Sequence record: NC_005066.1
DNA length: 64,000 nt
DNA from: Escherichia phage RB49
Strand: one strand, 5' to 3'
A program made the position numbers and the translations under genes. Each line of letters opens with the position of its first letter. The stretch's first letter is position 1. Below, piece by piece: positions 2,771 through 57,005 of the stretch. Below the pieces are notes generated by a model. The model did not search any database, was not told the DNA's origin, and saw only the letters and a list, made by a program, of their open reading frames with translations.

Positions 2771-2775
2771 TAAAT

Positions 2776-2800
2776 AGGGGCTTTAATGCCCCTTTATTCT
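2776..2800 (+). terminator. intrinsic terminator after uvsW
   Basis: Hairpin AGGGGC-tttaat-GCCCCT followed by T-rich run. Confidence 0.6.
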
Positions 2801-2813
2801 ACGGAGATTAAAA

Positions 2814-17400: not shown

Positions 17401-17404
17401 TAGA

Positions 17405-17881
17405 TTATTTGCACCACACTGTAATTTTCTTATCATGTTGGTAGTGAATCCATCGAATATCATCTTTATCAATCATGACAGTAACATACCCATTTACTAG
17501 TGATTTGTCAAAACGGTTATGTAACAGTGCAATATATTGAAAGAATGGTTCTTTTGTATTTGAATATATTCCCTTACCATCAAACGTCATGACATTTTTG
17601 TGAACTTTAAATTCATTACGAAGAACAGCCGTCATTGTCCCGTCTTCATTAGTTTTGAGTTTTAATTCGGATTCTTTGTAAAAATATGCGTCACGGGCTT
17701 TACTTTCTTCCCCGTCTTGTACTCTTACTTCACTAGCATAATCACACTGATAGGTCTTATCTACATTTTCGATCTTTTCTTGTGTCATATCAAAAAGCGG
17801 TGCGACCTTTTTCTTGGCCGCGTGTGCTACGTTGGTCATGGACAGTGCTGCAACAACCGCAATAGCAATAATCTTCTTCAT
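17405..17881 (-). CDS. secreted protein (158 aa) with signal peptide
   Basis: N-terminal MKKIIAIAVVAALSMTNVAHA signal sequence. Confidence 0.6.
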   Translation of the reverse strand: MKKIIAIAVVAALSMTNVAHAAKKKVAPLFDMTQEKIENVDKTYQCDYASEVRVQDGEESKARDAYFYKESELKLKTNEDGTMTAVLRNEFKVHKNVMTFDGKGIYSNTKEPFFQYIALLHNRFDKSLVNGYVTVMIDKDDIRWIHYQHDKKITVWCK

Positions 17882-17946
17882 AGTATTCTCCTTTTGTTTT
17901 GTGTTGGGAGTATCTTAGCGACACTCCCGTTATTTTTCAAATCTTT
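17882..17946 (-). promoter_or_regulatory. PeSL-like variant (stem-loop GGGAGTATCTTAGCGACACTCCC, no canonical TTGACA)
   Basis: SD-complement ggagaata plus hairpin in intergenic region. Confidence 0.35.
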
Positions 17947-18228
17947 TTATTCGTGATTAGTTTCGATGTTGTGCATTTTGCACCAGTTCAACCAATCGCC
18001 CAGATCTTGATAGTTGATGCTTTTATCTGCTGCCATCGTTTTTGTCTTGATACCCATATGTGCGTTATGAGTAAGCATTTTTACAGTGAACTCAATTTTA
18101 TCACCTTTAGCTTTAACATCAACCAGTTTGGTCCACTGGCTACCAGCGCCGCGAATGTTCATACCAACGATGTTTCCGATGTATGCTTCTTTGTTTTTCA
18201 GGATTTCGGTTGCTTTGATGAATTTCAT
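17947..18228 (-). CDS. small protein (93 aa)
   Basis: Track ORF preceded by PeSL. Confidence 0.55.
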   Translation of the reverse strand: MKFIKATEILKNKEAYIGNIVGMNIRGAGSQWTKLVDVKAKGDKIEFTVKMLTHNAHMGIKTKTMAADKSINYQDLGDWLNWCKMHNIETNHE

Positions 18229-18567: not shown

Positions 18568-18650
18568 TGTTTGATTCTCCTAAGTGGTATCTCGTCTTGA
18601 TGGGTGTATTATGCTATAGTCGTGATCTGGTGTCAACAACTTTTTTAAAT
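18568..18650 (-). promoter_or_regulatory. PeSL-like early promoter cassette
   Basis: Shares 31-nt gattctcctaagtggtatctcgtcttgatgg with cassette at 17079; tgtcaacaactttttt. Confidence 0.65.
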
Positions 18651-18658
18651 TTTTGGAA

Positions 18659-18689
18659 ATAAAAAAGCCGACACTAAGGTCGGCACATT
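18659..18689 (-). terminator. intrinsic terminator
   Basis: GCCGAC-actaag-GTCGGC hairpin; T6 on minus strand. Confidence 0.7.
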
Positions 18690-19001
18690 TTAAAAATTCT
18701 TGCTATATATGCAAGCCTCATAATCTAGAGGATGACCGCCAATCCTACCAGGCTTAATATTCCAACCGCATCGATATTTTCTGACCATGCTAACCGTTTC
18801 GGTTCTTAGAGCATTTCTTTGCAAATCATACCCCCTAAATTCTTGTCTATAAGGACAGTCCGCTTTGCAAGTTGGCGGTTCTACGTCATTTAGCGGGTCG
18901 GAAGCAGTTGGCTTTATTATCAATTCTTTGTTTGCAATAATCATAAGCACATCCCATTGAAGACAATTTAACATCTTCGCAATAAGTGTTGAATCCGTCA
19001 A
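18690..19001 (-). CDS. Cys-rich protein; overlaps upstream ORF by 116 nt, probably starts at internal ATG or is joined by frameshift
   Basis: Track ORF begins at TTG; internal ATGs at ~18974 and ~18944. Confidence 0.35.
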   Translation of the reverse strand: MTDSTLIAKMLNCLQWDVLMIIANKELIIKPTASDPLNDVEPPTCKADCPYRQEFRGYDLQRNALRTETVSMVRKYRCGWNIKPGRIGGHPLDYEACIYSKNF

Positions 19002-19077
19002 ATACGATCACTTCGTATTTGACTCCATCAGCGATAGCTTTTACTTTATACCATCCATGCTTGTATAAAATCTTCAT
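18886..19077 (-). CDS. small Cys-rich protein (63 aa)
   Basis: ATG with GAGGAAA RBS directly after PeSL. Confidence 0.5.
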   Translation of the reverse strand: MKILYKHGWYKVKAIADGVKYEVIVFDGFNTYCEDVKLSSMGCAYDYCKQRIDNKANCFRPAK

Positions 19078-19150
19078 CTTTATTTCCTCAATCTCGTTTC
19101 GATGGGTGTATTATGCTATAGGCTAGACCAGGTTGTCAACAACTTTTTTA
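19078..19150 (-). promoter_or_regulatory. PeSL-like early promoter cassette
   Basis: tcgtttcgatgggtgtattatgctat...ttgtcaacaactttttta. Confidence 0.65.
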
Positions 19151-19162
19151 ATTTTTTGGGAA

Positions 19163-19190
19163 ATAAAAAAGCCGACGCTAAGGTCGGCTA
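19163..19190 (-). terminator. intrinsic terminator
   Basis: GCCGACgctaagGTCGGC hairpin with T7 on minus strand. Confidence 0.7.
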
Positions 19191-19196
19191 ATAAAA

Positions 19197-19505
19197 TCAT
19201 TTGGACAAATAATCATTCTGTGCAATCCGGTCGGCGTATGCTGGTGTTATGTCAATCGCCAGCACTTTAACGCGTGCTTTCTTGCGACCTGGGTTTTCTC
19301 GTAACCAGTGCTCATGACCGTGAACATTTTTATACTTTGATGCTTCTTCAAATGTACGGATCGGACCTGGGTAATCAGCGTAAAGGATCTCTAGGTCTTC
19401 GGTGATGTAAAAATATACATCGTAATTACTGTTCTCTAGTTTAAGCAGAGAGTTGCGAAATTGTGGTAAATTCTCGCGGGTAAATTCAACTACAAGATTT
19501 TTCAT
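19197..19505 (-). CDS. H-x-H-W family small protein (member 1)
   Basis: HGHEHW ... VLAIDI motif shared with five neighbouring ORFs. Confidence 0.6.
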   Translation of the reverse strand: MKNLVVEFTRENLPQFRNSLLKLENSNYDVYFYITEDLEILYADYPGPIRTFEEASKYKNVHGHEHWLRENPGRKKARVKVLAIDITPAYADRIAQNDYLSK

Positions 19506-22800: not shown

Positions 22801-22872
22801 AATTGATTCTCCTAGTTCGTTTCGGTATGTGTGTAGTATAGGGGATCGGTGATCCCCTGTCAACAACTTTTT
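22801..22872 (-). promoter_or_regulatory. PeSL-like early promoter cassette
   Basis: aattgattctcc...tcgtttcggtatgtgtgtagtat AGGGGATCggtGATCCCCT gtcaacaactttttt. Confidence 0.65.
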
Positions 22873-23202
22873 TTAAAGTTTTTCCATGATAACGGTCATA
22901 ATTACATCTTCTGCGCGAGCTGTCAGATTATCAGCGTCAGCATGTGGGCGGTTGGTTGTTACAGAGATAACACCGTTGCGCACTGGTTTGATATTGATAT
23001 CAAGATGATCCGCGAAACGTTCGTGATCCGCGAAACGTTCGCCAGTTACAGAATGAATTTTGGTGTTAAATTCTTTTGCCAGTGCCTTGCGAACTTCACG
23101 AATCAGGATAGCGTTTTTCAGTTGGTTCTCCGCGCTCATGGTCTTCTGGGTGTTCATGGTTCCGTCGAAGTCAATCATTGGCAGCGTTACGATGTATTTC
23201 AT
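22873..23202 (-). CDS. small protein (109 aa) containing in-frame duplication ERFADH-ERFADH
   Basis: Track ORF preceded by PeSL. Confidence 0.55.
   Translation of the reverse strand: MKYIVTLPMIDFDGTMNTQKTMSAENQLKNAILIREVRKALAKEFNTKIHSVTGERFADHERFADHLDINIKPVRNGVISVTTNRPHADADNLTARAEDVIMTVIMEKL
23007..23042. repeat. 18-bp perfect-to-near-perfect tandem duplication inside coding sequence
   Basis: gatccgcgaaacgttcgt / gatccgcgaaacgttcgc, adjacent. Confidence 0.8.
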
Positions 23203-23285
23203 TTTTGATTCTCCGTTTAAGAAAGTGTGTTTCGTTTTGATGTGTGTAGTATAGGGGATACGTGATCCCCTGTCAACAACTTTTT
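23203..23285 (-). promoter_or_regulatory. PeSL-like early promoter cassette
   Basis: ttttgattctcc...AGGGGATacgtGATCCCCT gtcaacaacttttttg. Confidence 0.65.
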
Positions 23286-23289
23286 TGAA

Positions 23290-23634
23290 TTATTTTTTCA
23301 TGAGCTTAATGGCTTCTTCCATAGCCAGCACATTTCGATAGTTAGGGTATCGTGTTAGATCGTCATACATTCGCTTAAGGGTGGAAACTTCCTCAAACTC
23401 TGGGTTTTCTAGATACAGTTGAACAAATTGTTTCTCTACCATCTCTGCTTTTAGCTTGTCTGCTTGTTCCTGTTCATATGATTTAGTTGGACCCAACACC
23501 AACAAAATGATAAAGGTGATCAACGGGCTAATGATCAACGATAGGAGAACATAACCGATAACGCTACGGTTTAAACGGCTTGCGTACATGCCTACTAGGA
23601 AAACAAAAAGGATATAGATAAACAGAAAGAACAT
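23290..23634 (-). CDS. small membrane protein (114 aa, two predicted TM helices)
   Basis: Hydrophobic N-terminal half MFFLFIYILFVFLVG...LLSLIISPLITFIILLVLG. Confidence 0.55.
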   Translation of the reverse strand: MFFLFIYILFVFLVGMYASRLNRSVIGYVLLSLIISPLITFIILLVLGPTKSYEQEQADKLKAEMVEKQFVQLYLENPEFEEVSTLKRMYDDLTRYPNYRNVLAMEEAIKLMKK

Positions 23635-23641
23635 ATAATGG

Positions 23642-24115
23642 TTACTCCTTATTTTCTCGCTCGTACTTTTCGAAATAAAATTCTACTGGCTGGTCATGAA
23701 TTGACAGCAAGCCAAAGCGTTTAGCCGCTCGCAATCCCATATTGCGCTGAATGTACTTCTGGAAGTTCTCGCGTATACACTTACGCCAGTATTCTAAGCC
23801 CATACAGCTTTTATAAAGATTGCATTGCACACACGCCGGATTCATGTTATCAAGTATATCATGTTCCGGTTTATGCATTCCTACAACCTTATACTTCCAC
23901 GATCCATCATCATTACGGGCAATTCGTCCATTTTCATCATAGACTACCTTTGAGCGTCGCAATACTGGTTTGATGTGGTCTGCGTGCCAGCGATCCCCTA
24001 GTTCCTCGCCACAATAGGCACAACGTCCACCATATTTCATTTTCAGGATCTGGCGTTGCTCTTTCTTTGACAATTTTTTAGGTTTAGGGGCTTTCGCCCC
24101 TTCATTATCACACAT
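23642..24115 (-). CDS. HNH endonuclease (157 aa)
   Basis: CAYCGEELGDRWHADHIKP ... NMNPACVQCN: CxxC-HxDH-N-CxxC HNH signature; overlaps 3' end of ligase gene. Confidence 0.75.
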   Translation of the reverse strand: MCDNEGAKAPKPKKLSKKEQRQILKMKYGGRCAYCGEELGDRWHADHIKPVLRRSKVVYDENGRIARNDDGSWKYKVVGMHKPEHDILDNMNPACVQCNLYKSCMGLEYWRKCIRENFQKYIQRNMGLRAAKRFGLLSIHDQPVEFYFEKYERENKE

Positions 24116-39400: not shown

Positions 39401-40838
39401 CAAAAGATTTTACGATATACATGATAGTGCTCAATTCAGACGGCGCTACTGTCTCTGTCCAACCATCCGGCATATCTTCTTTCGAGATATAGGAAGTTTT
39501 ACCTTTCATCGCTTCCTTGATCTTGTTCTCTAAGTCTAAGATCTTTTGACCGTCTTGTAAAGTCAGTTCATAAAAGATCTCGTGGTCGAATTTAGAAACG
39601 TTAGATTGCTGTTTCATTCTTTCTTGTGTTGTTTTATTTGTTATACCAAATTTAATTCCCACCAAGAAAGAATCTTTAATTATTTTCTGTATATACAATA
39701 CGCCTTTTTTGGATGGTCTAAATCCATAATGTGCACAATTCGGACATCCTTTACCAGATAAAAAATTTTGTGCGGATGTTGTATATTCTCCACAATTAGA
39801 ACACAACAATTTTAGATTTTTTACTTTTCCTCCTTTATAACCAGAATCAAAGCATACAAATGTTATATTATCACGGTCTTTAGATTCTTTAATAATATCG
39901 AGCATGGCTTCTTCTTCGGTTTTTAATCCAACCCCAGCACATTTAGCACACCCGTTTCTTCCATTTTTAATAGAATTTAATGATGTTGTATACTCACCGT
40001 GTCGGTGACAACTAACTACCAAATTTTTTGTGTTTATATTTTTATAGCCATCAATAAAACCAACAACAGTTAAACCGAGTTGATCTGCACACTCTTTTGC
40101 AAAATTAATAGCGTCTTCTTCTGAAAATGTTCTCTTAGACACTGCTTTATTTTTACTACATATAGGACAGCCACGACCCAACCTACAGAAATTGTAATAA
40201 CTGGTTTTAAATTCACCATGAATAAAACATTCAACAATTAAATTTCTCTCATTGTTTTTTACATACCCACCTTCAAATCCGACAACTACACAATTTCCTA
40301 GTATATTTGCACGTTCGACCGCTTCTAGTGTAACAATGTTTATGTCATATTTTGGTGTTCCTTTGCATTTAGGACAACCACGCCCTTGCATATATTTGTT
40401 ATGCGAAGTTTTATATTCTCCATGATGTTTACAGTTCACTATAAGATTTCTGTATGCGCTTGTTTTATATCCACCGTCGAATCCTATAATATCTTCGGTT
40501 TCTCTTTTCTGAGACTCCATCAAAACATCGGCAAGTGCTTTATTAGTTGAGTTTCTTCTGATTTCAGCAACTCTATTGGTTGCACATTTTTTACAGCCAT
40601 AGTTTTTTTCGTAATTTCCGATATTTGACGTGAAGATGTTTTTACATTTGCATAATATACATGCTTTTGTTTTAACAGAATTCCATTCACCAATAAAGCC
40701 AAGATATATATGTTTTTTGGATAATGATATTTTAATAAATCTTTTCTCATATTCCATAGGAGAAATAGCACTAGATGTTTTTCCAGTCCATTGAATGTCT
40801 TTAGCATATCTAAGAATTGTCATTGATTTAATTTTCAT
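39381..40838 (-). CDS. large protein with five tandem Zn-ribbon modules and C-terminal GIY-YIG/T5orf172-like segment
   Basis: Repeats C-x2-[HC]GE[YF]xTS...G.GCPxC x5, each followed by GF.GGY; C-terminal GVLYIQKII...GIKFGITNKTTQER. Confidence 0.7.
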   Translation of the reverse strand: MKIKSMTILRYAKDIQWTGKTSSAISPMEYEKRFIKISLSKKHIYLGFIGEWNSVKTKACILCKCKNIFTSNIGNYEKNYGCKKCATNRVAEIRRNSTNKALADVLMESQKRETEDIIGFDGGYKTSAYRNLIVNCKHHGEYKTSHNKYMQGRGCPKCKGTPKYDINIVTLEAVERANILGNCVVVGFEGGYVKNNERNLIVECFIHGEFKTSYYNFCRLGRGCPICSKNKAVSKRTFSEEDAINFAKECADQLGLTVVGFIDGYKNINTKNLVVSCHRHGEYTTSLNSIKNGRNGCAKCAGVGLKTEEEAMLDIIKESKDRDNITFVCFDSGYKGGKVKNLKLLCSNCGEYTTSAQNFLSGKGCPNCAHYGFRPSKKGVLYIQKIIKDSFLVGIKFGITNKTTQERMKQQSNVSKFDHEIFYELTLQDGQKILDLENKIKEAMKGKTSYISKEDMPDGWTETVAPSELSTIMYIVKSFEKELTA

Positions 40839-40957: not shown

Positions 40958-41926
40958 TTACATCGCTAACAGAGAGTCCAGGTCATCCAGATCAGAAGCG
41001 GAGGAAGTACCGCCACCCAGATCCAGTGATGCCATCAGGTCATCAGCAGAAGAATCTGCCGCCGTGCTAGCTGCGTTAATACCAACTACAGTGCTAGCTG
41101 CGGCAATACCAGAATCGAATGCATTTAAAGCAGCGTCAAAATCGTCAAGCTGGCTGTTAATCGCTGCCGCAGCACTGGAAGCCGCAGCACCAGCTACCAT
41201 AGAAACGCCCATAGTTTTCTTAAATTTGGTTTCCAGTTCATCGAACGGTTTAAACTGGCTAGGCGCTACAATCTCACTCAGATCAACCATGTTTTCCATC
41301 AGATATTTCTGATATGCTTCGTCTTCAATTTTCGGAAGCTGTGATTGCTGCATGAAACGAGAATCATCATAGTTCTGGTGTTTATCAACCTTCTTAGCTT
41401 TCAGGAGGAAGTTAGCACCGGAGAACACACAAGTTACATCTACCGGAACTTCGCCCATGTCGGTATTCACGTTCACCATTGCAACGATCTTATCATAAAT
41501 TTTCTGACCGAAGCGGAATTTGAATACCTTACCTTCATTTTCTGGTGCTTGAGGATCTTTCAGTACCAGAATATTTGCGTAGTAAGAGGCTTTACGCTTA
41601 ATCAGTTGCCATTCTGTTTTATCGGTATTGTACAGATCTTTTTCGTTAATATATTTGCACACAGGGCAAGAATCAAAATCACCGTGGGTGCTGGAGCAGT
41701 TTTCCCAATACCATTTACCATTAACTTTGAAGGAATGGTTTACCAGTTTCACAATCGGCAGACCGTCTTCTGTCTTAGACGGCAGGAAGCGAATCAGGGC
41801 TTCACCGTTACCTGCTGCATCAGTCTTAATCTTCCACTCTTTCGGATCTTCTTTGGAGAAACCGTTGCCACCTTTCAGTGCGGCCAGTTGAGCTTGCAGT
41901 TTGGAAGAATCTTGGCGTTTAAACAT
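40958..41926 (-). CDS. 32: gp32 single-stranded DNA-binding protein
   Basis: Collinear with T4 gp32 (MFKR..., IRFLPSK, zinc-site [14 protein letters not shown]), acidic C-terminus. Confidence 0.95.
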
Positions 41927-42000
41927 ATTCACTATTCCTTCTTTTGATTAATTTACTAGACTATTATACAGATTTAAATTTACTTGTCAACTATTTGTTT
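41927..42000 (-). promoter_or_regulatory. promoter region upstream of gene 32 with TTGACA-type -35
   Basis: tacttgtcaactatttg and tattatac motifs between 59 and 32. Confidence 0.45.
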
Positions 42001-42667
42001 CGACTTTTAATTGAGATATTTCTTTACACTCTTTAACTACTTTAACAAATAATGCTCTTGCTTTTGCGGCGTCAATAACAAGTAGTTTCTTATACGCCTT
42101 CATTTTAACACTATAAGTTTGCCAAATCAAGTCTTTGGCTACCTTGTCGTGTTCGTCGATTATATTTAGAAAGCTATCTAACAACATAAACGACTCAAAC
42201 GATATAATCCGATTTTGCAGTAGTTTAAAGATACCGCTAGTTTCGGTTGCGGGATTGTATGTAATTAGCTCTTTAAGAGTAACCCCGCGTTTCTCGGAGA
42301 AGTATACCAGACTTTTAATGTCATCGTCAAATCGTGTTGCCGCATCAGTGATTTTACCGATGTACTCCATGTAAAACCCGTATGCGTCAACATCGGTGAT
42401 TTCACCTACCCATGCATCGGTATTAGCTACCAGATTGCTTAGGAATAGGAAGTATAATTCTCTTAGATTGTACTTTTCCGCTAATTTTGCGAAATAATAC
42501 TTATCTCTGCGTTTATTGAATGCGGCATCAGACAACCGCATCCTCCAATTGTATTTTACGCAATCATAACGCCCGTTCATATGAGCTTTCATCATGCAAT
42601 ATAACATATACACAGATTTAGCATTAATTCGCATATCTGGATCTGGAGGAAGACGGTTTCTGATCAT
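41987..42667 (-). CDS. 59: gp59 helicase loader
   Basis: Collinear with T4 gp59 (KSVYMLYCMMKAHMNGRYDCVKYNW, ISFESFMLLDSFLNIIDEHD). Confidence 0.93.
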   Translation of the reverse strand: MIRNRLPPDPDMRINAKSVYMLYCMMKAHMNGRYDCVKYNWRMRLSDAAFNKRRDKYYFAKLAEKYNLRELYFLFLSNLVANTDAWVGEITDVDAYGFYMEYIGKITDAATRFDDDIKSLVYFSEKRGVTLKELITYNPATETSGIFKLLQNRIISFESFMLLDSFLNIIDEHDKVAKDLIWQTYSVKMKAYKKLLVIDAAKARALFVKVVKECKEISQLKVETNS

Positions 42668-42676
42668 ACATACCCC

Positions 42677-42946
42677 TTAAATATCGAGAGTGTTGGTCGG
42701 TTCGTCGATCACTCCCTTCCTGAGCGTTCTATTTACTATACATTCTTGTGTGATCTTGTCAATAATGGACACCGGAATATACTTCTGATAGTGACCATAT
42801 TCTATAGAGTTTTCCTCTACAAACTGAGTGGTCGCTTCAAGATAAGTCAATCCCTCTTCAACAACCAGTTTTTCGATTGCAAGACCGTTTGCTGTTTTGT
42901 TCGCGGCTTTTACCGCATGTTCATTAAGCATTGAACACCCGATCAT
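42677..42946 (-). CDS. small protein in gp33 position (late transcription co-activator?)
   Basis: Synteny only (59-33-dsbA-rnh in T4). Confidence 0.3.
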   Translation of the reverse strand: MIGCSMLNEHAVKAANKTANGLAIEKLVVEEGLTYLEATTQFVEENSIEYGHYQKYIPVSIIDKITQECIVNRTLRKGVIDEPTNTLDI

Positions 42947-43199
42947 AGAGTTCTACCGCTTCATCGCGTTCTGCTTCGAAGGTTTCGCGCTGTTGCTGGT
43001 GATACAGTTTAAACAGAATGCCCCACATTTTACCATCTACGCCTAATTCTTCTTTAGCACGCTGTTTGATCTCTTTGATCTTATCGCCATATGCTTCTTG
43101 AATGGTTTTCTGATCGCTGGCTTCTTTAATCAGTTGTGCCAGGGTATTTCCGTGCACTGCTTCGTCAAATACTACTTTTTCTTTTTTCTGTTCAGTCAT
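42924..43199 (-). CDS. small protein in DsbA position (dsDNA-binding late transcription enhancer?)
   Basis: Synteny and size (91 aa vs 89) only. Confidence 0.3.
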   Translation of the reverse strand: MTEQKKEKVVFDEAVHGNTLAQLIKEASDQKTIQEAYGDKIKEIKQRAKEELGVDGKMWGILFKLYHQQQRETFEAERDEAVELYDRVFNA

Positions 43200-43203
43200 A
43201 ATA

Positions 43204-43800
43204 TTAACCCTCTTTAGTCATTAATTGAAAACCACGTTCAGCTTTTGAGATTTCGCTAGGACTTAAATCGTCACCCACATATTCTAGCATCATTTCTCGG
43301 ATAATGTCAAGTGCTTTTTCATCACCTGATTTTAACTCGAACTCAAGTTCATAGTGAGCATCTCCCATTACTTCGCCGACTTTGCAATAATAGAAAGTGT
43401 CTTTGCACATTTCCACTATAGCACCCTCAAGGTCAATTGTCAATGACTTGCGGTATGTCATTACTTGAAGTAAAGGAACGATAAGGTCGGAGTTTACGCC
43501 TAGACTATCAACATAATGATAGAAATCATCCATTGTTGAAAAAGTAATTTCTTCTCGGTTGAAGAGTCCAGATTCACTATCACCTATTTTGACCATGATC
43601 AATGATCTATTAACGTCAAGTCGAGCATAAATTCCTTTTCGACGCAGTGCATGATCTTCGGTATCATAATAAAATTCGTGTTTTAGAGTGTTAGCACGAT
43701 CTACTAGATTGTACCCGTCATACATTGCTACCCACAAATCACAGATTGTTTCGACGCCAATTTGTGAGTGTGCATAGTATTTTAATTCAAGTTCTTTCAT
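43204..43800 (-). CDS. CYTH-like (triphosphate tunnel metalloenzyme) protein
   Basis: N-terminal ELELK (ExExK) motif, C-terminal ELEFELK acidic strand; 198 aa. Confidence 0.5.
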   Translation of the reverse strand: MKELELKYYAHSQIGVETICDLWVAMYDGYNLVDRANTLKHEFYYDTEDHALRRKGIYARLDVNRSLIMVKIGDSESGLFNREEITFSTMDDFYHYVDSLGVNSDLIVPLLQVMTYRKSLTIDLEGAIVEMCKDTFYYCKVGEVMGDAHYELEFELKSGDEKALDIIREMMLEYVGDDLSPSEISKAERGFQLMTKEG

Positions 43801-43810
43801 ATGTCAACCC

Positions 43811-44758
43811 TTAGAACTCACCAATTTTCTGCAACATTTTAACTAACGCATTTGTTACAAAATAGTTATAAATTTTACCGCGTGGTGCTGGTTTAGATTT
43901 TTCCCATGACTCCAGAATCTGATTCTGAATATCATCTGGGATGTAATCGAAATCAATAAGTTCGCGGTTTTCGTCAAATCGTCGTGCTTCTTCCTCTGTC
44001 ATCAAAGACTTTGGGTCTTCGGCATCGAAAATTTGCTCTAACCATTTGGTTGCAACTGGTTTAGCTCGTTCCCCTTCCAGTCGAGAGATAATGAAATCAC
44101 TACGACACTTGACAGAAGCCACACCGTCTTTTGCGTCACCCTTAACACATTTTACCATAAGGTCTTTGTAAGGGCTACCATATTTGCATTTCTTCCATGC
44201 TTTCTGTACTGGCGCCCACTGTTTCACGTTTTTGTATTTGTGCAACTGTGTGTAGTCTCCATCACCGGAGTTGATCAGCACCTGGCGACCTTCTACAGAA
44301 AACTTTTTAGTTAACACAGCGATTATATCATCCGCTTCAACTTTGTCAACCTTAATAACGTGATAGGGCATATTCTCTTTAAACTCTTCGGTGATCTTAT
44401 TGATCGCAGCAAAGATCATCTCCCAATCACGCGGATCTGCGTCTCGCTTTTCCTTACGGTTGCGTTTATAGTAAGGTGCGATATCACGTCGCCAGTAACC
44501 TTTGCTTGAATCAAAAGCAAGTACCGTAATAGGGTATTGCTCTTTGAATTTTGTCATATTATAACGCATGGTGTCAAGAATAAGATGACGGATCATGCCT
44601 TCATTAATAGGATCTTCCGGTTTAAAGGTATGCGAGATAGTAGCAATCATAAGCTGCGACATATCAATCAAATGCACACCTTCCGGCAGTTTATCTTCTG
44701 GATCATCAAAGAAATCATTAAGTGTAGCGGTAGTTTTTGTAAACGGGTTATACGTCAT
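43811..44758 (-). CDS. rnh: RNase H / 5'-3' exonuclease (FEN)
   Basis: Size 315 aa, conserved acidic clusters (DGD, EADD), synteny upstream of gene 34. Confidence 0.85.
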   Translation of the reverse strand: MTYNPFTKTTATLNDFFDDPEDKLPEGVHLIDMSQLMIATISHTFKPEDPINEGMIRHLILDTMRYNMTKFKEQYPITVLAFDSSKGYWRRDIAPYYKRNRKEKRDADPRDWEMIFAAINKITEEFKENMPYHVIKVDKVEADDIIAVLTKKFSVEGRQVLINSGDGDYTQLHKYKNVKQWAPVQKAWKKCKYGSPYKDLMVKCVKGDAKDGVASVKCRSDFIISRLEGERAKPVATKWLEQIFDAEDPKSLMTEEEARRFDENRELIDFDYIPDDIQNQILESWEKSKPAPRGKIYNYFVTNALVKMLQKIGEF

Positions 44759-44760
44759 AA

Positions 44761-44946
44761 TTAAGTTCTCTCCACTCTCACAACAACATATTCGCCAAAC
44801 GAGTTAGATACTTCACGATCATACCCATATTTCTCCATAACTCGCAGAATTGCATTGTTTAATTCGGCGCGGAAATAATTGTAATCCTTATCAGGGATTC
44901 TGTCAACTACCCATTTTGCACCTTCTGACAAATCAACTTTAACCAT
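44761..44946 (-). CDS. small protein (61 aa)
   Basis: Track ORF. Confidence 0.45.
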   Translation of the reverse strand: MVKVDLSEGAKWVVDRIPDKDYNYFRAELNNAILRVMEKYGYDREVSNSFGEYVVVRVERT

Positions 44947-44984
44947 AATATATCATCCTCTTTTGTTTCTATCAAGCCTTATTT

Positions 44985-44992
44985 TATAAATA
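44985..44992 (+). promoter_or_regulatory. T4-type late promoter TATAAATA upstream of gene 34
   Basis: Exact TATAAATA ~28 nt upstream of ATG. Confidence 0.6.
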
Positions 44993-45020
44993 TGAACATA
45001 CTATAAAAGGAGACCCAATA

Positions 45021-48000
45021 ATGGCAGATTTTTCTCAACATTTCAAGGCCACATTTGGCTTTGACGCTGGTAATGAAAAGGTCGTCAATGTAGCATTGGC
45101 TGATAAGAATGTCAACACCGATGCGGTCAACGTTGAATTTTTCAATTACCATAATGGCATTACTCAGTATGACACAACTCGCGGTTATGATCAATACGGA
45201 ACTACAATTTATCAAAACCGTCCATATTATGCAAAAGAAGATATCACAAAGCCAGCAGGTGATTTTGACCCGACTAAATGGCAAGCACTGCGCACGGACC
45301 CACGTTGGGATTATATTGCAGCAACTTCCGGTGATACTCCTTTAAAGTCTGGTGATTATATCGCAGCAGATGGTCAATTTGCAAACTTGACTTTCTCTAT
45401 GCCAACTAAACCAGCAGAGGGAGACACTATAACAGTAAAAGATATCGGTGGCAAGTGTGGTGTTAACGAATTATCGTTCTTGAGTTCAGGACATGAGTTT
45501 TACCATAACGGTAATGTGTATAACCGAAAATGGTATTGCACTACCCCGTATGCAATGAACTATTTCATCTTTGTTCGGAATCGTTGGCATGTTTATCAGA
45601 CGGGAACAGAGCCGCGCGGTGTGTACGCACAGCCAGCGATTGATGCTATTCAAATGCAGAATGGTGATCAGGTATTTCGTCGTAGTTCGTTGGGTAATAT
45701 TACCTTAGTGCTTCCTAAGTTTGCCAACAATGGCGACATGATCCAGACTACAGACCTTGACGGATTAACCGCAACCAACCACGTTACGGTTAAAGTTCAT
45801 GAGCACGCAGAAGAACAATCAATTGGCACGTCCGGTCTAAAAGAGATTATCGGTAAGCGTAGCGGTCATGGTGTATTCATCTTTGACAAACCGGAAAACT
45901 TATGGCGTTTGTGGGATGGTGATCAGTCTGTTCGTCTTAAACCGATCATCGATGACACTCGCTTGCAACCTAATAGCTATGTTGCTGTATTTGGTGATCG
46001 TGATGTTACTCTGACTCTACCGACCAATGTTGAGCCGGGTGATCGTATTCAAGTTTCTATGCAGTATATGCACGGAAACCAGAATTGCCGTATTATCACC
46101 GCCACAGAGGATACAAAAATCCTTATGTCGAAAAACATGGTTCAGTTTCCGAAGCGTAGCGAGTACCCATTCAACGGGACCGACACATGGAAGGAAGTGT
46201 CTGAATTGTCGTTCAATGCGGCTAGTGATTATGTACCTTATCTGGAGTTCTCTTATTCAGAAGGTGATGATGGTAAGAAACATTGGCTGGTAGCACACTC
46301 TCATCCGATCGTCGAACGAGTAGACCCTACTCGTAAAGATCGTGTTGGTGTAATTGCACTGGCTACCCAGACTGAAACGAATAAAAACCATGAAGAGAAT
46401 CCTAGCGACGAAGTTGCGGTAACACCAAAAATGCTGGCTAATAAAACCGCCAACGAAACTCGACGCGGTATTGCTCGCATTGCGACTCAAGCGGAAACGC
46501 ATCAAGATACTGGTTCCAACTTCCTGGATGATGTTATCGTTACGCCTAAAAAGTTAAATGATTGTGTTGCTACCGAAGCCCGTCGTGGCGTGATGGAAAT
46601 TGCAACCCAGCACGAAACCAATGAAGGTTTAGACGATACCCGCGCTATTACACCTAAGAAATTAGAAGAACGTCGCGCTTCCGAAGATCTCGCTGGTATT
46701 GCTGAAATTGTTCAGGCTGGCGGTAGTGCTGCCGCTCGACGTGGCGAAGCTGGTACAGGGATCTATAACATCAACGACCATGTTAAAATTGTTACGCCAC
46801 AAAACATCAACGAAGTCAAGGCGACCGAAACTTCCCGTGGTGTTGGCTATCTGGCAACTGACGCGGAAGTGCAAGGGGCTACAGAATCAACCCCGCAAGA
46901 TGCTTTACTAATCACGACTCGCACGCTAACGAAACGTACTGCTACCGAATCGCGCACTGGTATCGCTGAAATTGCAACTCAGGAAGAAACAAACTTAGGT
47001 CAAAGTGATAACCATATCATCACGCCTAAAAAGCTGCATACTCGCCGCGCAACGGAAACTTTACACGGTTTAGCAGAAATTGCAACTCAGCCGGAATTTG
47101 ACGCAGGTCTTGACGATGCTCGCATTTCTACCCCATTGAAGATTAAAACCTTCTTTGAGAATGCACAGCGTTTGAAAGTAGATCCGACTCAGGGGCTTAA
47201 CCTTACTGGTGATTTGTGGCAAGGTATCATGATCAGCGGTCTGGATGCAACCGAAGACACAAAGGGTGTCGCTAAAGTTGCTACTACTCAGCTTACGGAT
47301 GCTGGTCAAGATGATACTACAATCATCACGCCTAAAAAGCTGCAAGGCAAAAAAGCCACCGAAGGTAAAGAAGGTATTATCCGCGTTGGTACTCAAGCCG
47401 AAACCGTGGCTGGTACACTGGCTAATGTAGCAATTTCTCCGAAGAACTTCAAATATGTTGTTCAGACAGAGGATACATGGAAAGCAACCGAAGCGCGTCG
47501 TGGATTCTTGAAAGTTGCTACTCAGGAAAACTGTTTTGTTGGTGATAATCTGCAAGGTTCTACTCAAGAACTAGGAAACTACCAGCATGACGGAATTGCT
47601 GTTACTCCGAAAGGATTAAACTACGCACTTGCTAATTTCTTACCTAAGATGGCAACCGCTCAGAATAGTTTGAAATTGGGTAACGTAGAGGCCGCTAAAT
47701 GGGCGCGTAGAGACATTGACCAGACCATAGAGAGCAATTACACGTTTAATAAAAACGTTAACGTGAAGGGCGATTTAGAGTGCTTAAAATCTGGTTCCTT
47801 TGAAACTCTGTCTGTGACTAAGAACTCAACCGATGATCCGAGTAATGGTCATCTGGTGTTGGGTGAGCGTGGAGTTGACGGTCACACCGGAATTACTCTG
47901 CATGGCACAACCGCATCGGAAGGCATGAAAAACTCGTGGTCTATTATCGTTGGTGGTACTGGAACAGCGCAAGTTGTTGATAGTGATGCTATCGCTTTCG

Positions 48001-50137: not shown

Positions 50138-51628
50138 ATGGCAGATTTGAAACATGGATCTACTGTAGGCGGATCTCCCATTTGGACGCAAGGAAACTTG
50201 ACGATCCAGCCAGCGGGGGATCAGCTTTTCTACAAAGGTCATAAAATCTATACCGCTTTTGATAGACCTTCGGCTACCGATTTTGATGCTGTTAGTGCAT
50301 CCGAAGGTGGAACATTTCAAAAGCAAGTTCATTTCGAGGAAGGTTTAAGCGTAGGTAGCGCATCGGCTGGAGAAACCAAAAAGAATGGTATCTTTAAAGG
50401 CCAGAGTGATGCTGCTAATTTTGACGGCGTAAGCTGGGGTTTGCATTCATGGAAGTCAATCGGCTTTGTTAATGCCCGTGATGGCGTTATTATGGCTTAT
50501 ATTGACACCACAACGGGCGAATTTAAGTCTAAAGGGACTATCGAAGGGACAACCATTAAAGATACAGGTCAACGCGTCTATAGCCCTGTTAATAAACCAA
50601 CGAATAATGATTTAGATTTGGTGTCTCGTCGCGGTGATACCCTAACAGGAACATATAATTTAAACACTGTCACAGTTAAACTATCGGTTGATTCGAAATT
50701 AATTGCAAGGGAACGTGATTTAATTAATTTTGATGCGACTAAGATCTATTATGGTAACGTTCTTGATACGTTGGTATTCCGAAGTAAAGATGAGCCTACC
50801 ATTTTTGTTAATGGCAAAGAAGGTCGTTTTTATCACACCAACAATAAACCGACTAAAGCCGATGTTGGACTAGGCAATGTCACCAATGATGCACAGGTTA
50901 AACGTGCTGGTGATATTATGGAAGGTAACTTGCAAGCGCCTAGAATGTTGGCGACAAACGATCCTGCTGGTCCTAATGAATTGGTTCGTTTGAGCTACTT
51001 TGAGAGAAAATCAATGGTAGCAAATCCAACCATCATTGGAAACGTTGATTGGAACACTCTTATTAATCGCGGTATCTATCGTGTGGAAAATGCTGGGTCG
51101 GGCACTAATAAACCGTCTGATAGCTATTATAATGGCGTTTTGATGGTATATCGCCCAGAAGATGCGGTCGGTACTCGTCGAATTGTTCAGGTGTATTATC
51201 CTGAATCTATTGACCATCCGATGTGCTGGCGTTCGTGTTCTAATGAATCATGGACTGCATGGAACTATGTAGATCACCGTAAATTAGCCGATATTCGCTA
51301 TGTTAACGTAACTGGCGATACCATGACAGGACCGTTAACTGTTCCGGCTGCAAACGGTGTTAGAACAGCTAAAACTAACTATAACGGGGATAACTGTTAT
51401 GCGGCGTTAAGCGGTGCTGATGGTACTGCTATGATTCACCGCATTAGTGATATTAAAGGGACCGAAAAGCTGGGGATCACCCACGACTCAAAGGTCGTGT
51501 TTTTCCGTTCTAGAAACAATACTCAAACCGTGGACCGCTATCAGCTTTATCATGAAGGTAATAAACCTACTCCGGCTGATGTTGGAGCGGTTCCACTTAA
51601 TGCGGTGATTGATTTTGGTACTTTCTAA
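50138..51628 (+). CDS. 36: gp36 long tail fibre distal-proximal connector (expanded, 496 aa)
   Basis: N-terminus matches T4 gp36 (MADLK.GST.GGS.IW.QGN); much longer than T4 (221 aa). Confidence 0.8.
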   Translation: MADLKHGSTVGGSPIWTQGNLTIQPAGDQLFYKGHKIYTAFDRPSATDFDAVSASEGGTFQKQVHFEEGLSVGSASAGETKKNGIFKGQSDAANFDGVSWGLHSWKSIGFVNARDGVIMAYIDTTTGEFKSKGTIEGTTIKDTGQRVYSPVNKPTNNDLDLVSRRGDTLTGTYNLNTVTVKLSVDSKLIARERDLINFDATKIYYGNVLDTLVFRSKDEPTIFVNGKEGRFYHTNNKPTKADVGLGNVTNDAQVKRAGDIMEGNLQAPRMLATNDPAGPNELVRLSYFERKSMVANPTIIGNVDWNTLINRGIYRVENAGSGTNKPSDSYYNGVLMVYRPEDAVGTRRIVQVYYPESIDHPMCWRSCSNESWTAWNYVDHRKLADIRYVNVTGDTMTGPLTVPAANGVRTAKTNYNGDNCYAALSGADGTAMIHRISDIKGTEKLGITHDSKVVFFRSRNNTQTVDRYQLYHEGNKPTPADVGAVPLNAVIDFGTF

Positions 51629-51632
51629 TTTT

Positions 51633-51658
51633 AGCGGGGATTATCTCCCCGCTTTTCT
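51633..51658 (+). terminator. hairpin terminator/attenuator after gene 36
   Basis: AGCGGGGA-ttatc-TCCCCGCT followed by TTTTCT. Confidence 0.6.
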
Positions 51659-51698
51659 AAATAATATTATTCTAATAACCGTTTAAGGATTTTATAAA

Positions 51699-54638
51699 AT
51701 GGCAGATTTAAGCAGAATCCAATTTAAACGCACTAGCACTAAAGGTCGTCGACCTGATGCTGGTACGATGAATCCGGGGGAATTGGCAATCAACCTTGCG
51801 GATCAATATCTTCTTACTAAAAATGATTTCGGTGCTATTATCAATTTAAGTTGTCCTCCGGTTTATGACCGCGATGTTACAATGGCAGGTAAGGTTAAAG
51901 GTAATAATTATATCTTAAGTAAAACCGCTAACTATCTGGAAGATCAGACAGCGCGAGATCTTAATTACTTTGGTGCTTTCCGTACCAATGGTCTTGATGG
52001 TCTTCTCGAACTCACGCTAAACGTTCCTCATTCTTCTGGTGTTCAGCATGGTCGAGGATTTACTTTCCAGTATGGACATACTGGATCACGAGTAGAAACC
52101 TATGGCTATAATAGAGAAGGTCAAAAAGCATTTAGTTATAAAATGTATCACGAAGGCGATAAACCTACACCATCGGAATTGAACGTTTACAGCAAACAAG
52201 AAATTGACCGTATGTTTGTTAAGAACGTTAAAATGGTTGTTCCTTCTGGTGGTGCAACCCGTGGTTATTTTAAAATTGCATCCGCAATGATCCCGCAGAG
52301 TGGTCGGATGGTGTTTCTGCGAATCTATGATGGTAATGGATATAATGTAAACTCATATGATCAAGTTGATTTTCTTGAAATTGTTATTCGTAGTGGTAAT
52401 AATAACCCTAAAGGTGTTAGTATTGCTGCTTATCGTCGAAATGCTCTGAACGTTCATCAAGTATTTGCGGTTAATACTTCCGGTGATAACTACGATATCT
52501 ACGTTAACTACGGTCGTTACACCGATAACGTTATTGTCGAATACGGTAAAACTAATGATGTTACTCTGACAGTACATGATGTTCCTGAATTAACTCTCGT
52601 TAAACCTTCTGTTGGTGTTACCGATGCTCGTGTTATTACAATGTTCAACACCGAAAACAAAGCCGGAACGTTGATGTTTGATAATAACCCGCAAGGGACT
52701 TACGATATTATCAGTTTGAGTAATGCTGCTGATAATAATAGAAATTATCTGCGTAAATTCCGAAGCAAAGCTAGTGAAATGGTTTGGCATGAAACCGTTC
52801 AGGGTGCTGTATATCGTCTTGCTACTGGTGCTACAGATTCTACAGAAGTTATTAGAATTGATTCTAATAGTGCAATACCGGGTAATTATAAAGGATATGT
52901 AATTACTGGTAAAATGGAATTGCACGGTAGTGGTAATGCGATGACTTTACATCGACAGACTGGTCAAGCTGCATATATGGCGTGGTGGGATCGTCGTGAT
53001 GGTAAAAACCAACGTAGTGGTTATATCGGTCATGCGGATGGTACTAGTGATGGTTTTGTGTGGCGTAATGATGTTGGTGCTAACTCATTTGATTTGGAAG
53101 GTAGTGGACAAGTAAATTTGACTACAGGAAAAACAAAAATTGTATATACCAATGGTCAATATTATTCCGCTAACGCCGATGCATACCGTATGATCTTTGG
53201 TAATTACGGTGCATTCTGGCGTAATGACGGCACTAAAGTTTATCTTCTGTCTACTGCTGAAAATGATAAGTATGGTGGATGGAATGCCTATCGTCCATTC
53301 ATTTATGATTTAACTTCCGGTAACGTTCAATTAGGCGGTGATGGTAACGAAGAAGCATTAACGTTAGAACGTGCTTCTCGTGCCGCTCGCTTTAGTAATG
53401 ACGTTTACATTAAGAAAGGGCATTTGACTTTCGACGCTGGGCGATTAAATTCCCGCGATTACTTCCGGTTTAACCATTGGGGTGATAGTAATAATGCTCG
53501 TGATAACATCTTACAGCTTGACGATAGCAAGGGTGCTCATTTTACCACTGAACGTACTTTAGCAACTGGTGCAATTAAAACTAAATTCTTCGGTGATTTG
53601 GAATCTGCTGGTCAAATTAAATGGGGTAAAGGGACCGCCACATCTACGTTTACTCTACGTGTATGGGGTAACGATAGTCGTAAACAAATATTTGAATGCG
53701 GCGATGAAAGCGGGTGGCATTGGTATACCCAACGAGCGGGGGGTCCTGGTACAAATGAGATTATATTCAATGTTAACGGGAAATTTCAATCTCGGGATTT
53801 TGAGACTTCCGGTAATATTAAGATAACTGGTCCAGACATTGAGTTTCGTCGCACTGGTAATAAGCACATCTGGTTTAGAGATCCGAACGGTTTAGAATTA
53901 GGTTTGATGTACTGCGATGATGCTGGTGCTATTCGCTTCCGTGGTCAGAAACAAGCCCAGACGTGGAAACTTGCGGATAAGATGATTCATCTTGAGGCGG
54001 GGACTGTCGGCGGATCTGATAAAGGTTTGATTCGTGGTAGTGTTGCTGGTGGTAGCTGGGCTAGCTGGCGTGATCGTTCTGCCGGAATCCTCGTAGACTG
54101 TCCTCAATCAACCGATTCCGCTCATAACATCTGGAAAGCGACTCATTGGGGAAAATATCATATTGCGGCAATGGGTGTACACGTTCCTGGCGGCACTATA
54201 GGTAATGCTATAGCACGCCTAAACGTTAATGACGCAAACTTTGAATTTAGCGCCTCCGGTGACATGTCGGCAGGACGTAACGGTAGCTTTAACGATGTGT
54301 ATATTCGTTCTGATGCTCGACTTAAAATCAATAAGGAAGAGTATAAAGAGAATGCCACCGATAAAGTTAATCGCTTGACTGTATACACCTATGATAAGGT
54401 TAAATCTTTAACCGACCGTACTGTCATTGCCCACGAAGTTGGTATTATTGCACAGGATCTTGAGAAAGAATTGCCGGAAGCAGTAACAACTTCTAAGGTT
54501 GGCGATCCTGATAAGCCAGAAGAAATCTTAACAATTTCTAACTCTGCTGTCAACGCTCTTTTAATTAAGGCGTTCCAGGAAATGAGCGAAGAACTTAAAG
54601 CCGTTAAAGCTGAACTAGAGGAACTTAAAAAGAATTAA
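51699..54638 (+). CDS. 37: gp37 long tail fibre distal subunit (receptor-binding) with C-terminal chaperone domain
   Basis: N-terminus matches T4 gp37 (IQFKR....G.RP.A......GELAINL.D); 979 aa. Confidence 0.9.
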   Translation: MADLSRIQFKRTSTKGRRPDAGTMNPGELAINLADQYLLTKNDFGAIINLSCPPVYDRDVTMAGKVKGNNYILSKTANYLEDQTARDLNYFGAFRTNGLDGLLELTLNVPHSSGVQHGRGFTFQYGHTGSRVETYGYNREGQKAFSYKMYHEGDKPTPSELNVYSKQEIDRMFVKNVKMVVPSGGATRGYFKIASAMIPQSGRMVFLRIYDGNGYNVNSYDQVDFLEIVIRSGNNNPKGVSIAAYRRNALNVHQVFAVNTSGDNYDIYVNYGRYTDNVIVEYGKTNDVTLTVHDVPELTLVKPSVGVTDARVITMFNTENKAGTLMFDNNPQGTYDIISLSNAADNNRNYLRKFRSKASEMVWHETVQGAVYRLATGATDSTEVIRIDSNSAIPGNYKGYVITGKMELHGSGNAMTLHRQTGQAAYMAWWDRRDGKNQRSGYIGHADGTSDGFVWRNDVGANSFDLEGSGQVNLTTGKTKIVYTNGQYYSANADAYRMIFGNYGAFWRNDGTKVYLLSTAENDKYGGWNAYRPFIYDLTSGNVQLGGDGNEEALTLERASRAARFSNDVYIKKGHLTFDAGRLNSRDYFRFNHWGDSNNARDNILQLDDSKGAHFTTERTLATGAIKTKFFGDLESAGQIKWGKGTATSTFTLRVWGNDSRKQIFECGDESGWHWYTQRAGGPGTNEIIFNVNGKFQSRDFETSGNIKITGPDIEFRRTGNKHIWFRDPNGLELGLMYCDDAGAIRFRGQKQAQTWKLADKMIHLEAGTVGGSDKGLIRGSVAGGSWASWRDRSAGILVDCPQSTDSAHNIWKATHWGKYHIAAMGVHVPGGTIGNAIARLNVNDANFEFSASGDMSAGRNGSFNDVYIRSDARLKINKEEYKENATDKVNRLTVYTYDKVKSLTDRTVIAHEVGIIAQDLEKELPEAVTTSKVGDPDKPEEILTISNSAVNALLIKAFQEMSEELKAVKAELEELKKN
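54309..54635 (+). other. intramolecular chaperone (peptidase S74-like) domain; predicted autocleavage before Ser of SDARLK
   Basis: YIR|SDARLKINKEEY... matches the SDARLK cleavage motif of phage fibre/endosialidase chaperone domains. Confidence 0.7.
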
Positions 54639-55893: not shown

Positions 55894-56219
55894 TCTGGAA
55901 ACTTCCCGTAAACATTCTCTGCCAGCTTACGTGCATCTTTTACAATATCTTTCATATAATGACTATAATTTTTAGCTAGATCAATGATGCAATCAACAAA
56001 GAAGTAATAGCGTCGCAGTGCTACCAGCTCAACATCTTCAAGATGACCATTTTCTCCAATCGCTGAAATATGTTTAAATTCCTTTCGGATCGCGTCCATC
56101 GCTACATTAACTTCTTTTATAATATCTTTCGTATTATATGCACCTCGACTAATCAAAATTTTGGTTAGGTCTTCTGCTTTTTCATGAAAGTTGTCAATTT
56201 CAAACTCGATCATAATCAC
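55890..56219 (-). CDS. small protein (109 aa), paralog of 56328..56660
   Basis: Shared C-terminus ...DARKLAENVYGKF vs ...EARIMTENIFGKF. Confidence 0.55.
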   Translation of the reverse strand: MIMIEFEIDNFHEKAEDLTKILISRGAYNTKDIIKEVNVAMDAIRKEFKHISAIGENGHLEDVELVALRRYYFFVDCIIDLAKNYSHYMKDIVKDARKLAENVYGKFPE

Positions 56220-56262
56220 CTCTCATAGTTTCACGCTGTTGTGTCAACATTTTTTCGTGGTT
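56220..56262 (-). promoter_or_regulatory. early promoter-like element (TTGACA -35)
   Basis: gttgtgtcaacatttttt upstream of gene start. Confidence 0.4.
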
Positions 56263-56327
56263 TACTAATTCTATACATTGTAATAGCATAACCAGTGAAA
56301 TTTTCAATGATTCATCATCTTTCATAA

Positions 56328-56660
56328 TCAAAATTTACCGAAAATATTCTCTGTCATAATTCTTGCTTCGTCGATTATTTTCGTCATGTTCATGGTGTAG
56401 TTATGACCATTTAGTGCCTTAATAACAACGAGCAAGGAATCTAAAAACACTCGATACCGGGTATATTCTACGCTATTTGTGAATACCGATGTTTTCTCTA
56501 CTTTATCGATCAGATAGCCTAAAGCCGATAGCGCCTCGTTTACTTCCCTTGTTACTTTATCGGCGCTAAACAACACCGGATAAAGACGCGGTGTGATTAA
56601 CCGCGCTGCCTCTTTCAATTCGGTCGCTTTCCATGATTCATATTTGTCATAGTTAAACAT
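56328..56660 (-). CDS. small protein (110 aa), paralog of 55890..56219
   Basis: See paralog. Confidence 0.55.
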   Translation of the reverse strand: MFNYDKYESWKATELKEAARLITPRLYPVLFSADKVTREVNEALSALGYLIDKVEKTSVFTNSVEYTRYRVFLDSLLVVIKALNGHNYTMNMTKIIDEARIMTENIFGKF

Positions 56661-56672
56661 TGTATAGTCCCC

Positions 56673-57005
56673 TTACAGATGAAAACCTGTTACGATCACC
56701 GCATCGATCATACCGCTAGGAATAAACGGTTCACCCTCTTTTATTTCAACTTTGAATTGATGCCATTTCGCTAATACTTCTTCCGGTACACCCAGCGATT
56801 CGGCGTCTGCTTTAGTTTCATCCATAATCCAACTAGGCTGCATGAGAGCATAGTTTACATAGTCCATTTCTGGGGTCATGTCATCAATGTTAATATATTT
56901 GCAGTTGACGCGTTTCAGAATTTCAAATTCTTTATTGTCAACCTGTACCATGTATAATTCAGTAGTTTCTGGAATCAGTTCCCACACAATCAGTACATTT
57001 TTCAT
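56673..57005 (-). CDS. small protein (110 aa)
   Basis: Track ORF. Confidence 0.5.
   Translation of the reverse strand: MKNVLIVWELIPETTELYMVQVDNKEFEILKRVNCKYINIDDMTPEMDYVNYALMQPSWIMDETKADAESLGVPEEVLAKWHQFKVEIKEGEPFIPSGMIDAVIVTGFHL

Follow-up and report, generated by a model that had tools for sequence, protein, structure and literature searches.

YgiF of Escherichia coli is an inorganic triphosphatase in which an N-terminal triphosphate tunnel metalloenzyme (TTM) domain of the CYTH superfamily is combined with a CHAD domain. It hydrolyses inorganic triphosphate (PPPi), but not ATP, GTP, ITP, pyrophosphate (PPi) or the polyphosphate polyP65 (PMC3440374), and the roles of its residues come from a structural and mutational study of YgiF and AtTTM3 (PMC4641920). 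Here we describe a gene of Escherichia phage RB49 (NC_005066.1), a T4-related coliphage of the genus Krischvirus, located at 43204..43800 on the minus strand of a 64,000-nucleotide (nt) stretch (hereafter the window), whose product is best supported by sequence comparison and structure prediction as a CYTH/TTM protein with YgiF as its nearest characterised relative. The open reading frame (ORF) starts with ATG, encodes 198 amino acids and is the orthologue of RB49ORF244c in family 14893 of PHROGs. The CYTH assignment itself is not new, since Nolan et al. listed RB49ORF244c in 2006 with a Pfam CYTH hit at E 0.0026 (PMC1524935).

The protein scores 27.7 bits against the Pfam CYTH family (PF01928; gathering cut-off 23.2, E 2.9e-6), and PF01928 is precomputed for most of its homologues. 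YgiF was the best match in a single-sequence search of PDB sequences (E 0.02); a profile of 14 family members retrieved it at E 1.5e-8 over residues 2-195, with no other significant match, and an hhalign comparison of the family with the tunnel domain of YgiF gave a probability of 94.8%. An AlphaFold2 model computed on the family alignment (mean predicted local distance difference test score 92, predicted template-modelling score 0.86) has eight long strands, three helices and a terminal helix, forming an eight-stranded antiparallel beta-barrel tunnel with a C-terminal plug helix. In a Foldseek search of the PDB with this model, the best 47 matches all have the CYTH/TTM fold, and YgiF comes first (E 3e-13, template-modelling (TM) score 0.78). 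The search also returns Cet1/Pct1, viral capping triphosphatases and non-enzymatic tunnel-fold proteins; the capping enzymes are no nearer than other TTMs in sequence or structure, and the YgiF TTM domain is the closest relative by both measures. An earlier note, made from the letters alone, had proposed a CYTH-like fold from the ExExK signature at the N-terminus (MKELELKYY) and a C-terminal acidic strand (HYELEFELK, residues 149-157). Sequence, profile and predicted-structure comparisons all bear this out, and the structural similarity to the CYTH fold on which the proposal depended is present throughout the 47 best Foldseek matches. A chance ORF or a coincidental ExExK match was rejected on the Pfam, profile and Foldseek results. 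Searches of two further resources were negative: no NCBIfam model, including the cyaB model TIGR00318, matched at E <= 0.1, and PADLOC matched the protein to no known defence-system component.

We then compared the tunnel residues with those of YgiF, using the 14 family members (overall identity down to 31%) and numbering aligned to native YgiF. The ExExK motif on strand beta1 (codons 3-7, 43780..43794, minus strand) is invariant in all of them. Its E3 and E5 correspond to YgiF E4 and E6 of metal site 2, and K7 corresponds to the phosphate-binding K8. On strand beta8, the ExExE motif (codons 151-155, 43336..43350, minus strand) is also invariant, with E151, E153 and E155 aligning to YgiF E158, E160 and E162; E160 belongs to metal site 1 and E162 to metal site 2. 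The R-L-D stretch on strand beta3 (codons 60-62, 43615..43623, minus strand) carries R60, the counterpart of the catalytic Arg56, mutation of which inactivates YgiF (PMC4641920). Among the remaining counterparts, K71 and R117 match the phosphate-binding K69 and R126, R82 and E84 match the tunnel-lining R81 and E83, and K186 and R189 match K191 and R194 of the plug helix, which is almost identical in the two proteins (SKAERGFQLM in the phage, SKAARGYHLA in YgiF). In total, 12 of 13 YgiF tunnel residues are matched in the phage protein, and each is invariant across the 14 homologues. Conservation within the strands follows an i, i+2 pattern: of the 44 positions that face the tunnel, 17 are invariant, compared with 3 of the 48 that face outward (permutation p ~5e-5), a test that is partly circular because the parity of two strands was picked from the conservation pattern. 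Even so, the pattern points to selection on the tunnel interior and in turn to a working enzyme.

Together, our results suggest that the gene encodes a stand-alone, single-domain TTM of the YgiF type, and we consider it probable that the protein is a phosphohydrolase acting on a small triphosphate. By analogy with YgiF, the substrate would be held together with Mg2+ or Mn2+ in the beta-barrel tunnel, one side of which would be shut by the plug helix. E153 would complete metal site 1, R60 would act as the catalytic arginine, and the phosphates would be gripped by K7, K71, R82, R117, K186 and R189. Such a two-metal enzyme is predicted to free orthophosphate from its triphosphate substrate and to leave the diphosphate form behind, products that would make it a phosphohydrolase rather than a cyclase. 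The near-identical plug helix and the PPPi specificity of YgiF point to a small substrate like that of YgiF; our guess at the likeliest class is PPPi or short polyphosphate, or else a small organic triphosphate.

Several observations weigh against this reading. YgiF Arg58, the second arginine of the RxR pair, is replaced by Asp62 (Asp in 13 of the 14 members, Asn in the metagenomic relative P0046), and this charge reversal within the tunnel could change the substrate. Five invariant tunnel-facing aromatic residues (Y9, Y44, F80, F136 and Y138) are absent from YgiF and might bind an organic moiety. Identity to the YgiF TTM domain is only 23-26%, and the CHAD domain is missing: the chain stops at residue 198, directly behind the plug helix, dsbA follows as the next ORF, and Pfam gives no CHAD match in the protein. 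The specificity of YgiF is not simply transferable across these differences, and even for YgiF the physiological relevance of PPPi hydrolysis is doubtful (PMC3440374). The activity is assigned by analogy, and PHROGs labels the family ‘unknown function’; a literature search on phage CYTH function, Krischvirus accessory genes and YgiF with phage returned nothing relevant and no functional study. Finally, the orthologue in isolate G2494 (vB_EcoM_G2494, MK327935.1) is frameshifted by a 1-nt deletion at nt 175, just ahead of the catalytic Arg60 codon. This copy also carries scattered transversions, and GenBank annotates two ORFs there (301-896). It could be either a natural pseudogene, in which case the gene would be dispensable in the laboratory, or a sequencing error.

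The genomic setting is that of a replication-gene string. On the minus strand the order is orf61 - rnh - CYTH ORF - dsbA - 33 - 59 - 32, and neighbouring genes lie 2-10 nt apart or overlap slightly. The upstream neighbour rnh (43811..44758, minus strand) encodes a T4-type RNase H / 5'-3' exonuclease (Pfam RNaseH_C, E 2e-39), and the downstream neighbour dsbA (42924..43199, minus strand) encodes the double-stranded-DNA-binding late-transcription protein (Pfam Phage_DsbA, E 5e-22). A Shine-Dalgarno-like AAGGG (43808..43812, minus strand) lies 7 nt before the CYTH ATG and overlaps the rnh stop codon, and the dsbA ribosome-binding site (GAGGG) lies inside the last codons of the CYTH gene. The CYTH gene would share a transcript with rnh, dsbA, 33 and 59, which are genes of replication and late transcription. 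A candidate sigma-70-type promoter, TTGATA-17-TATATT (44947..44975, minus strand), lies upstream of the orf61-rnh-CYTH-dsbA-33-59 string; it comes from a consensus scan alone, with no evidence of function. The T4 late-promoter box TATAAATA is oriented towards the divergent gene 34.

The CYTH gene is found in 57 of 57 Krischvirus isolates and in a few uncultured relatives, always in the order rnh-CYTH-dsbA. Among 50,697 phage records, tblastn with the RB49 protein and with the metagenomic relatives P0044 and P0046 matched the same 57 Krischvirus records alone, and the 2.5-kb stretch around the gene likewise matched 57 phage records, all Krischvirus, at 90-99% identity. Identity to the orthologues is 83-100% in 56 records and drops to 59% in phage Skers. 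IMG/VR contributed three loci, and an exhaustive HMMER scan of 1.84 billion representative proteins returned 18 matches at E <= 1e-3. The nearest non-isolate relatives (P0043, P0044, P0046 and P0042) lie on metagenomic contigs in the order (rnh-)CYTH-dsbA-33; on one of these contigs rnh is 81% identical to Krischvirus rnh but below 60% to 1,625 other T4-like records. The next relatives are ordinary cellular CYTH proteins.

In T4, dsbA and rnh lie 8 nt apart and, as the earlier note had stated, there is no gene at this position. Its description of the gene as inserted holds relative to T4 only. The synteny is kept down to 31% CYTH identity and the gene shows no GC anomaly, so recent horizontal acquisition on grounds of composition was rejected; the gene is, as far as these genomes indicate, an old resident of the Krischvirus-like lineage and not a recent insertion. 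Loss from T4 and gain by the Krischvirus-like lineage fit this distribution alike.

Two of the more distant matches have features of their own. The closest cellular relative, P0045, is 31% identical and lies on an archaeal-looking contig with a Sec61-beta gene; its gene (6001-6606) is directly downstream of a PRK-type (uridine-kinase/phosphoribulokinase-like) kinase gene and adjoins RNA ligase and Nudix genes, and the kinase-CYTH neighbourhood recalls the kinase-TTM fusions of plant TTM1/2. In P0048 (3923 amino acids), five separate stretches match CYTH residues 126-176 (beta7-beta8 and the following helix; E 7e-6), which may reflect either a repeat protein of tunnel-strand-like units or a compositional match.

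The same setting bears on a different substrate, a nucleotide or nucleic-acid 5'-triphosphate. The protein would then remove the gamma-phosphate of 5'-triphosphorylated (ppp-) RNA or hydrolyse particular nucleoside or deoxynucleoside triphosphates (NTPs or dNTPs). Its targets could be replication primers subsequently processed by rnh, or the 5' ends of host or phage mRNA, where it would produce 5'-diphosphorylated (pp-) RNA for RppH/RNase E-dependent decay. Some TTMs are RNA triphosphatases or broad NTPases, Cet1/Pct1 and viral capping triphosphatases are among the fold-search matches, and jumbo-phage CYTH triphosphatases have been proposed to act on NTP pools (PMC7824862). Asp62 and the invariant tunnel aromatics set the protein apart from the PPPi-specific YgiF, and the position directly downstream of rnh persists among the most diverged syntenic relatives. 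However, adjacency to rnh is weak evidence in T4-like genomes, and we hold a 5'-triphosphatase to be a tentative and rather unlikely alternative to the YgiF-type enzyme on a small triphosphate.

A further, unusual feature of the gene is a sharply bounded island of divergence. Codons 1-148 (43357..43800, minus strand) occur as several deeply diverged alleles, as seen in DNA identity, in the proportion of synonymous differences (pS) and in allele clustering; the same comparisons show the C-terminal part (43204..43356, minus strand) at backbone-level identity in all Krischvirus alleles. Against Skers DNA, codons 1-148 are 43-65% identical, whereas the flanking rnh, dsbA, 33 and 59 are 95-100% identical and the last 50 CYTH codons are back at 97%. 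The Phi1-type allele has the same island in milder form (73-90% DNA identity). Among the encoded proteins, the neighbours reach 93-100% identity in comparisons where CYTH has 58-83%, and in more distant relatives dsbA and gp33 are 65-80% identical where CYTH is 31-44% identical. The CYTH protein evolves about four times faster than its neighbours, with its tunnel invariant.

By the Nei-Gojobori method, synonymous sites in codons 1-148 are saturated (pS 0.74-0.78), whereas the synonymous divergence (dS) of the flanks and of the C-terminal 50 codons is 0.02-0.2. Saturation within the island next to low flank dS shows the alleles to be ancient and to have been carried from one backbone to another by recombination, rather than to have arisen where they now stand. 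On the same values, the island was judged to be due neither to in-situ hypermutation nor to pure positive selection. Clustering of the N-terminal part at 80% identity gave eight allele classes. Five of these sit on the Krischvirus-type C-terminal part (86-98% identical) with N-terminal parts that share 43-74% amino-acid identity, a divergence about equal to that of the copy in a different lineage. The tunnel-lining residues are invariant across alleles.

As a control, we compared the whole window with Skers. The median identity is 97.5%, and there are about eight major islands including the distal tail-fibre genes; the CYTH island thus belongs to a small group and is not unique. The other islands, with little or no alignable DNA, are at 17401-18000, 18601-19200, 22801-23800, 39601-40800, 51401-54600 and 56001-56800. 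The island at 51.4-54.6 kb lies in the distal tail-fibre genes, and at 39.6-40.8 kb Skers has a GIY-YIG nuclease gene. Short dips in DNA identity (0.72-0.88) also occur within core genes that are otherwise 95-100% identical. One, at ~43910-43970 in the 3' part of rnh, shows in the comparisons with Skers and PHB13; the other, at ~42350-42410 in gene 59, shows in those with all three genomes compared. These dips may be small recombination patches.

One reading relates the island to host defence. The tunnel would then destroy an immunity-linked molecule bearing a triphosphate, either a ppp-containing signalling nucleotide or the PPPi released by dGTPase/dNTPase defences, and an arms race against a sensor or inhibitor made by the host would maintain the ancient outer-surface alleles. 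Balancing or arms-race selection on the outer surface would fit the pattern: at least five deeply diverged alleles of codons 1-148 stand on near-identical Krischvirus backbones, the protein changes quickly around a fixed tunnel, and the island keeps company with host-range genes of the tail fibre. Both dNTPase defences and E. coli Dgt make PPPi (10.1101/385401; 10.1101/2021.04.26.441389). Neutral mosaicism of an accessory gene fits the pattern equally well, however; accessory genes of T4-like phages often exchange alleles in a mosaic fashion, and such exchange can be neutral. Where measurable, the ratio of nonsynonymous to synonymous divergence (dN/dS) is 0.17-0.4; with values below 1, positive selection is not demonstrated. 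A literature search combining CYTH, phage and anti-defense found no link for any CYTH protein. The sole triphosphate-bearing signal checked, p3diT of the Clover system, inhibits defence, so that its destruction would harm the phage, and hydrolysis of p3diT was dropped as an anti-defence idea for this reason. We regard a counter-defence or host-takeover factor as distinctly unlikely, and a role in interfering with nucleotide-based immunity is pure speculation, the unusual allelic diversity being its sole, indirect hint.

A class IV adenylate cyclase (AC-IV) or other nucleotidyl cyclase, making cyclic AMP or another cyclic nucleotide to manipulate the host, is very improbable. CYTH is the fold of CyaB-type cyclases, and the earlier note had left class IV cyclase and triphosphatase side by side; the triphosphatase half of that proposal is favoured and the cyclase half disfavoured. 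Database labels for the Krischvirus orthologue are inconsistent (‘adenylate cyclase’, ‘inorganic triphosphatase’ and ‘hypothetical’), with several records using the first. Vogt et al. (PMC8233210) list three determinants of true AC-IV enzymes: an HF motif four residues before ExExK (HFxxxxExExK) for adenine stacking, a small residue in place of the first beta3 Arg, and Ala in place of the second beta8 Glu. The phage protein starts M-K-E-L-E-L-K, with two residues ahead of the first Glu and therefore no space for the HF motif; the gatekeeper Arg60 is kept and invariant; and E153 and Glu155 are both Glu and both invariant. With all three marks and any TIGR00318 match absent, a class IV adenylate cyclase was rejected, and the ‘adenylate cyclase’ label in some Krischvirus GenBank records is probably wrong as judged from these residues. 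YgiF carried the same mislabel until it was assayed (PMC3440374). The WxRxR signature of the mammalian 25-kDa thiamine triphosphatase, whose Trp stacks on the thiazolium ring, is also absent, the corresponding motif being Y58-A-R60-L-D62; Tyr58 was not used as a stacking residue of the thiamine triphosphatase kind, as P0044 and P0046 have Val or Ile in its place.

A catalytically dead protein with a structural or binding role, like Mediator Med18/Med20 or the Vtc2/3 tunnel domains, could be imagined from the non-enzymatic proteins in the fold search and from the one basic tunnel residue replaced by Asp, but the chance is very slight given that all metal ligands and the catalytic Arg are invariant across homologues with only 31% overall identity and that conservation is concentrated at tunnel-facing positions.

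Some further features of the gene string were recorded. On the minus strand of 41900-45100, 22 sigma-70-like promoter matches were found against 10.4 +/- 3.8 expected, about a twofold excess. Perfect 12/12 matches occur within rnh (44349..44322) and upstream of gene 32 (41990..41963). The CYTH gene itself contains 11/12 matches at 43443..43415 and at 43310..43281, of which the second is ~80 nt ahead of dsbA. Such matches within the string may be internal promoters. The mechanical ORF call for gene 32 (40958-41932) begins at a GTG two codons before an ATG (MNMFKRQ...), and the true gp32 start is probably this internal ATG. Homing-endonuclease genes are variably inserted around the string: one lies between gene 34 and orf61 in PHB13 (1429-1848), ELT4 and FL15, an HNH gene lies between 59 and 32 in Skers (5802-6398), and segG lies between 59 and 32 in T4 (2410-3042). 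The window has none of those listed here.

If the YgiF-type reading is true, Krischvirus phages supply a YgiF-like triphosphatase of their own to a host already equipped with one, which would offer a tractable handle on the long-unanswered question of the in vivo purpose of CYTH/PPPi-type triphosphatases; any benefit to the phage is a guess. We propose ‘CYTH-family triphosphatase, YgiF-like, substrate unknown’ as a corrected label, and we flag the sharply bounded allelic hot spot as a feature that might matter for host range or for evading defence. At present, the product is an ordinary accessory enzyme, confined to a single phage genus and noted before, and a member of a well-known superfamily. 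Its importance would rise substantially only if the allelic diversity reflects a counter-defence function.

Among known systems, RB49ORF244c and its Krischvirus orthologues are the same gene, differing in allelic variation alone. The CYTH fold is also present in other viral genomes, namely in Aeh1ORF004c, Aeromonas phages 65.2 and D3, uncultured Caudovirales and the capping triphosphatases of giant viruses (PMC1524935; PMC7824862). These proteins are not detectably orthologous to the RB49 protein in tblastn searches with three clade members, which reached Krischvirus only; their Foldseek TM scores are ~0.4-0.55, and their sizes and architectures differ. Compared with CyaB and YpAC-IV (TIGR00318), the phage protein lacks the HF motif and keeps the gatekeeper Arg and the second beta8 Glu. 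The stand-alone TTM triphosphatases BH2851, SaTTM, AtTTM3, NeuTTM and CthTTM are less similar to it than YgiF is in structure and sequence. They keep the RxR pair, and several form dimers of known PPPi or NTP activity. The closest system is the N-terminal TTM domain of the CYTH-CHAD protein YgiF (PDB 5a60/5a61), which has the RxR pair on beta3 where the phage protein has R60-L-D62. YgiF is a 433-residue protein, whereas the 198-residue phage protein has neither the linker nor the CHAD domain; the YgiF gene adjoins glnE, whereas the phage gene lies in a replication-gene operon.
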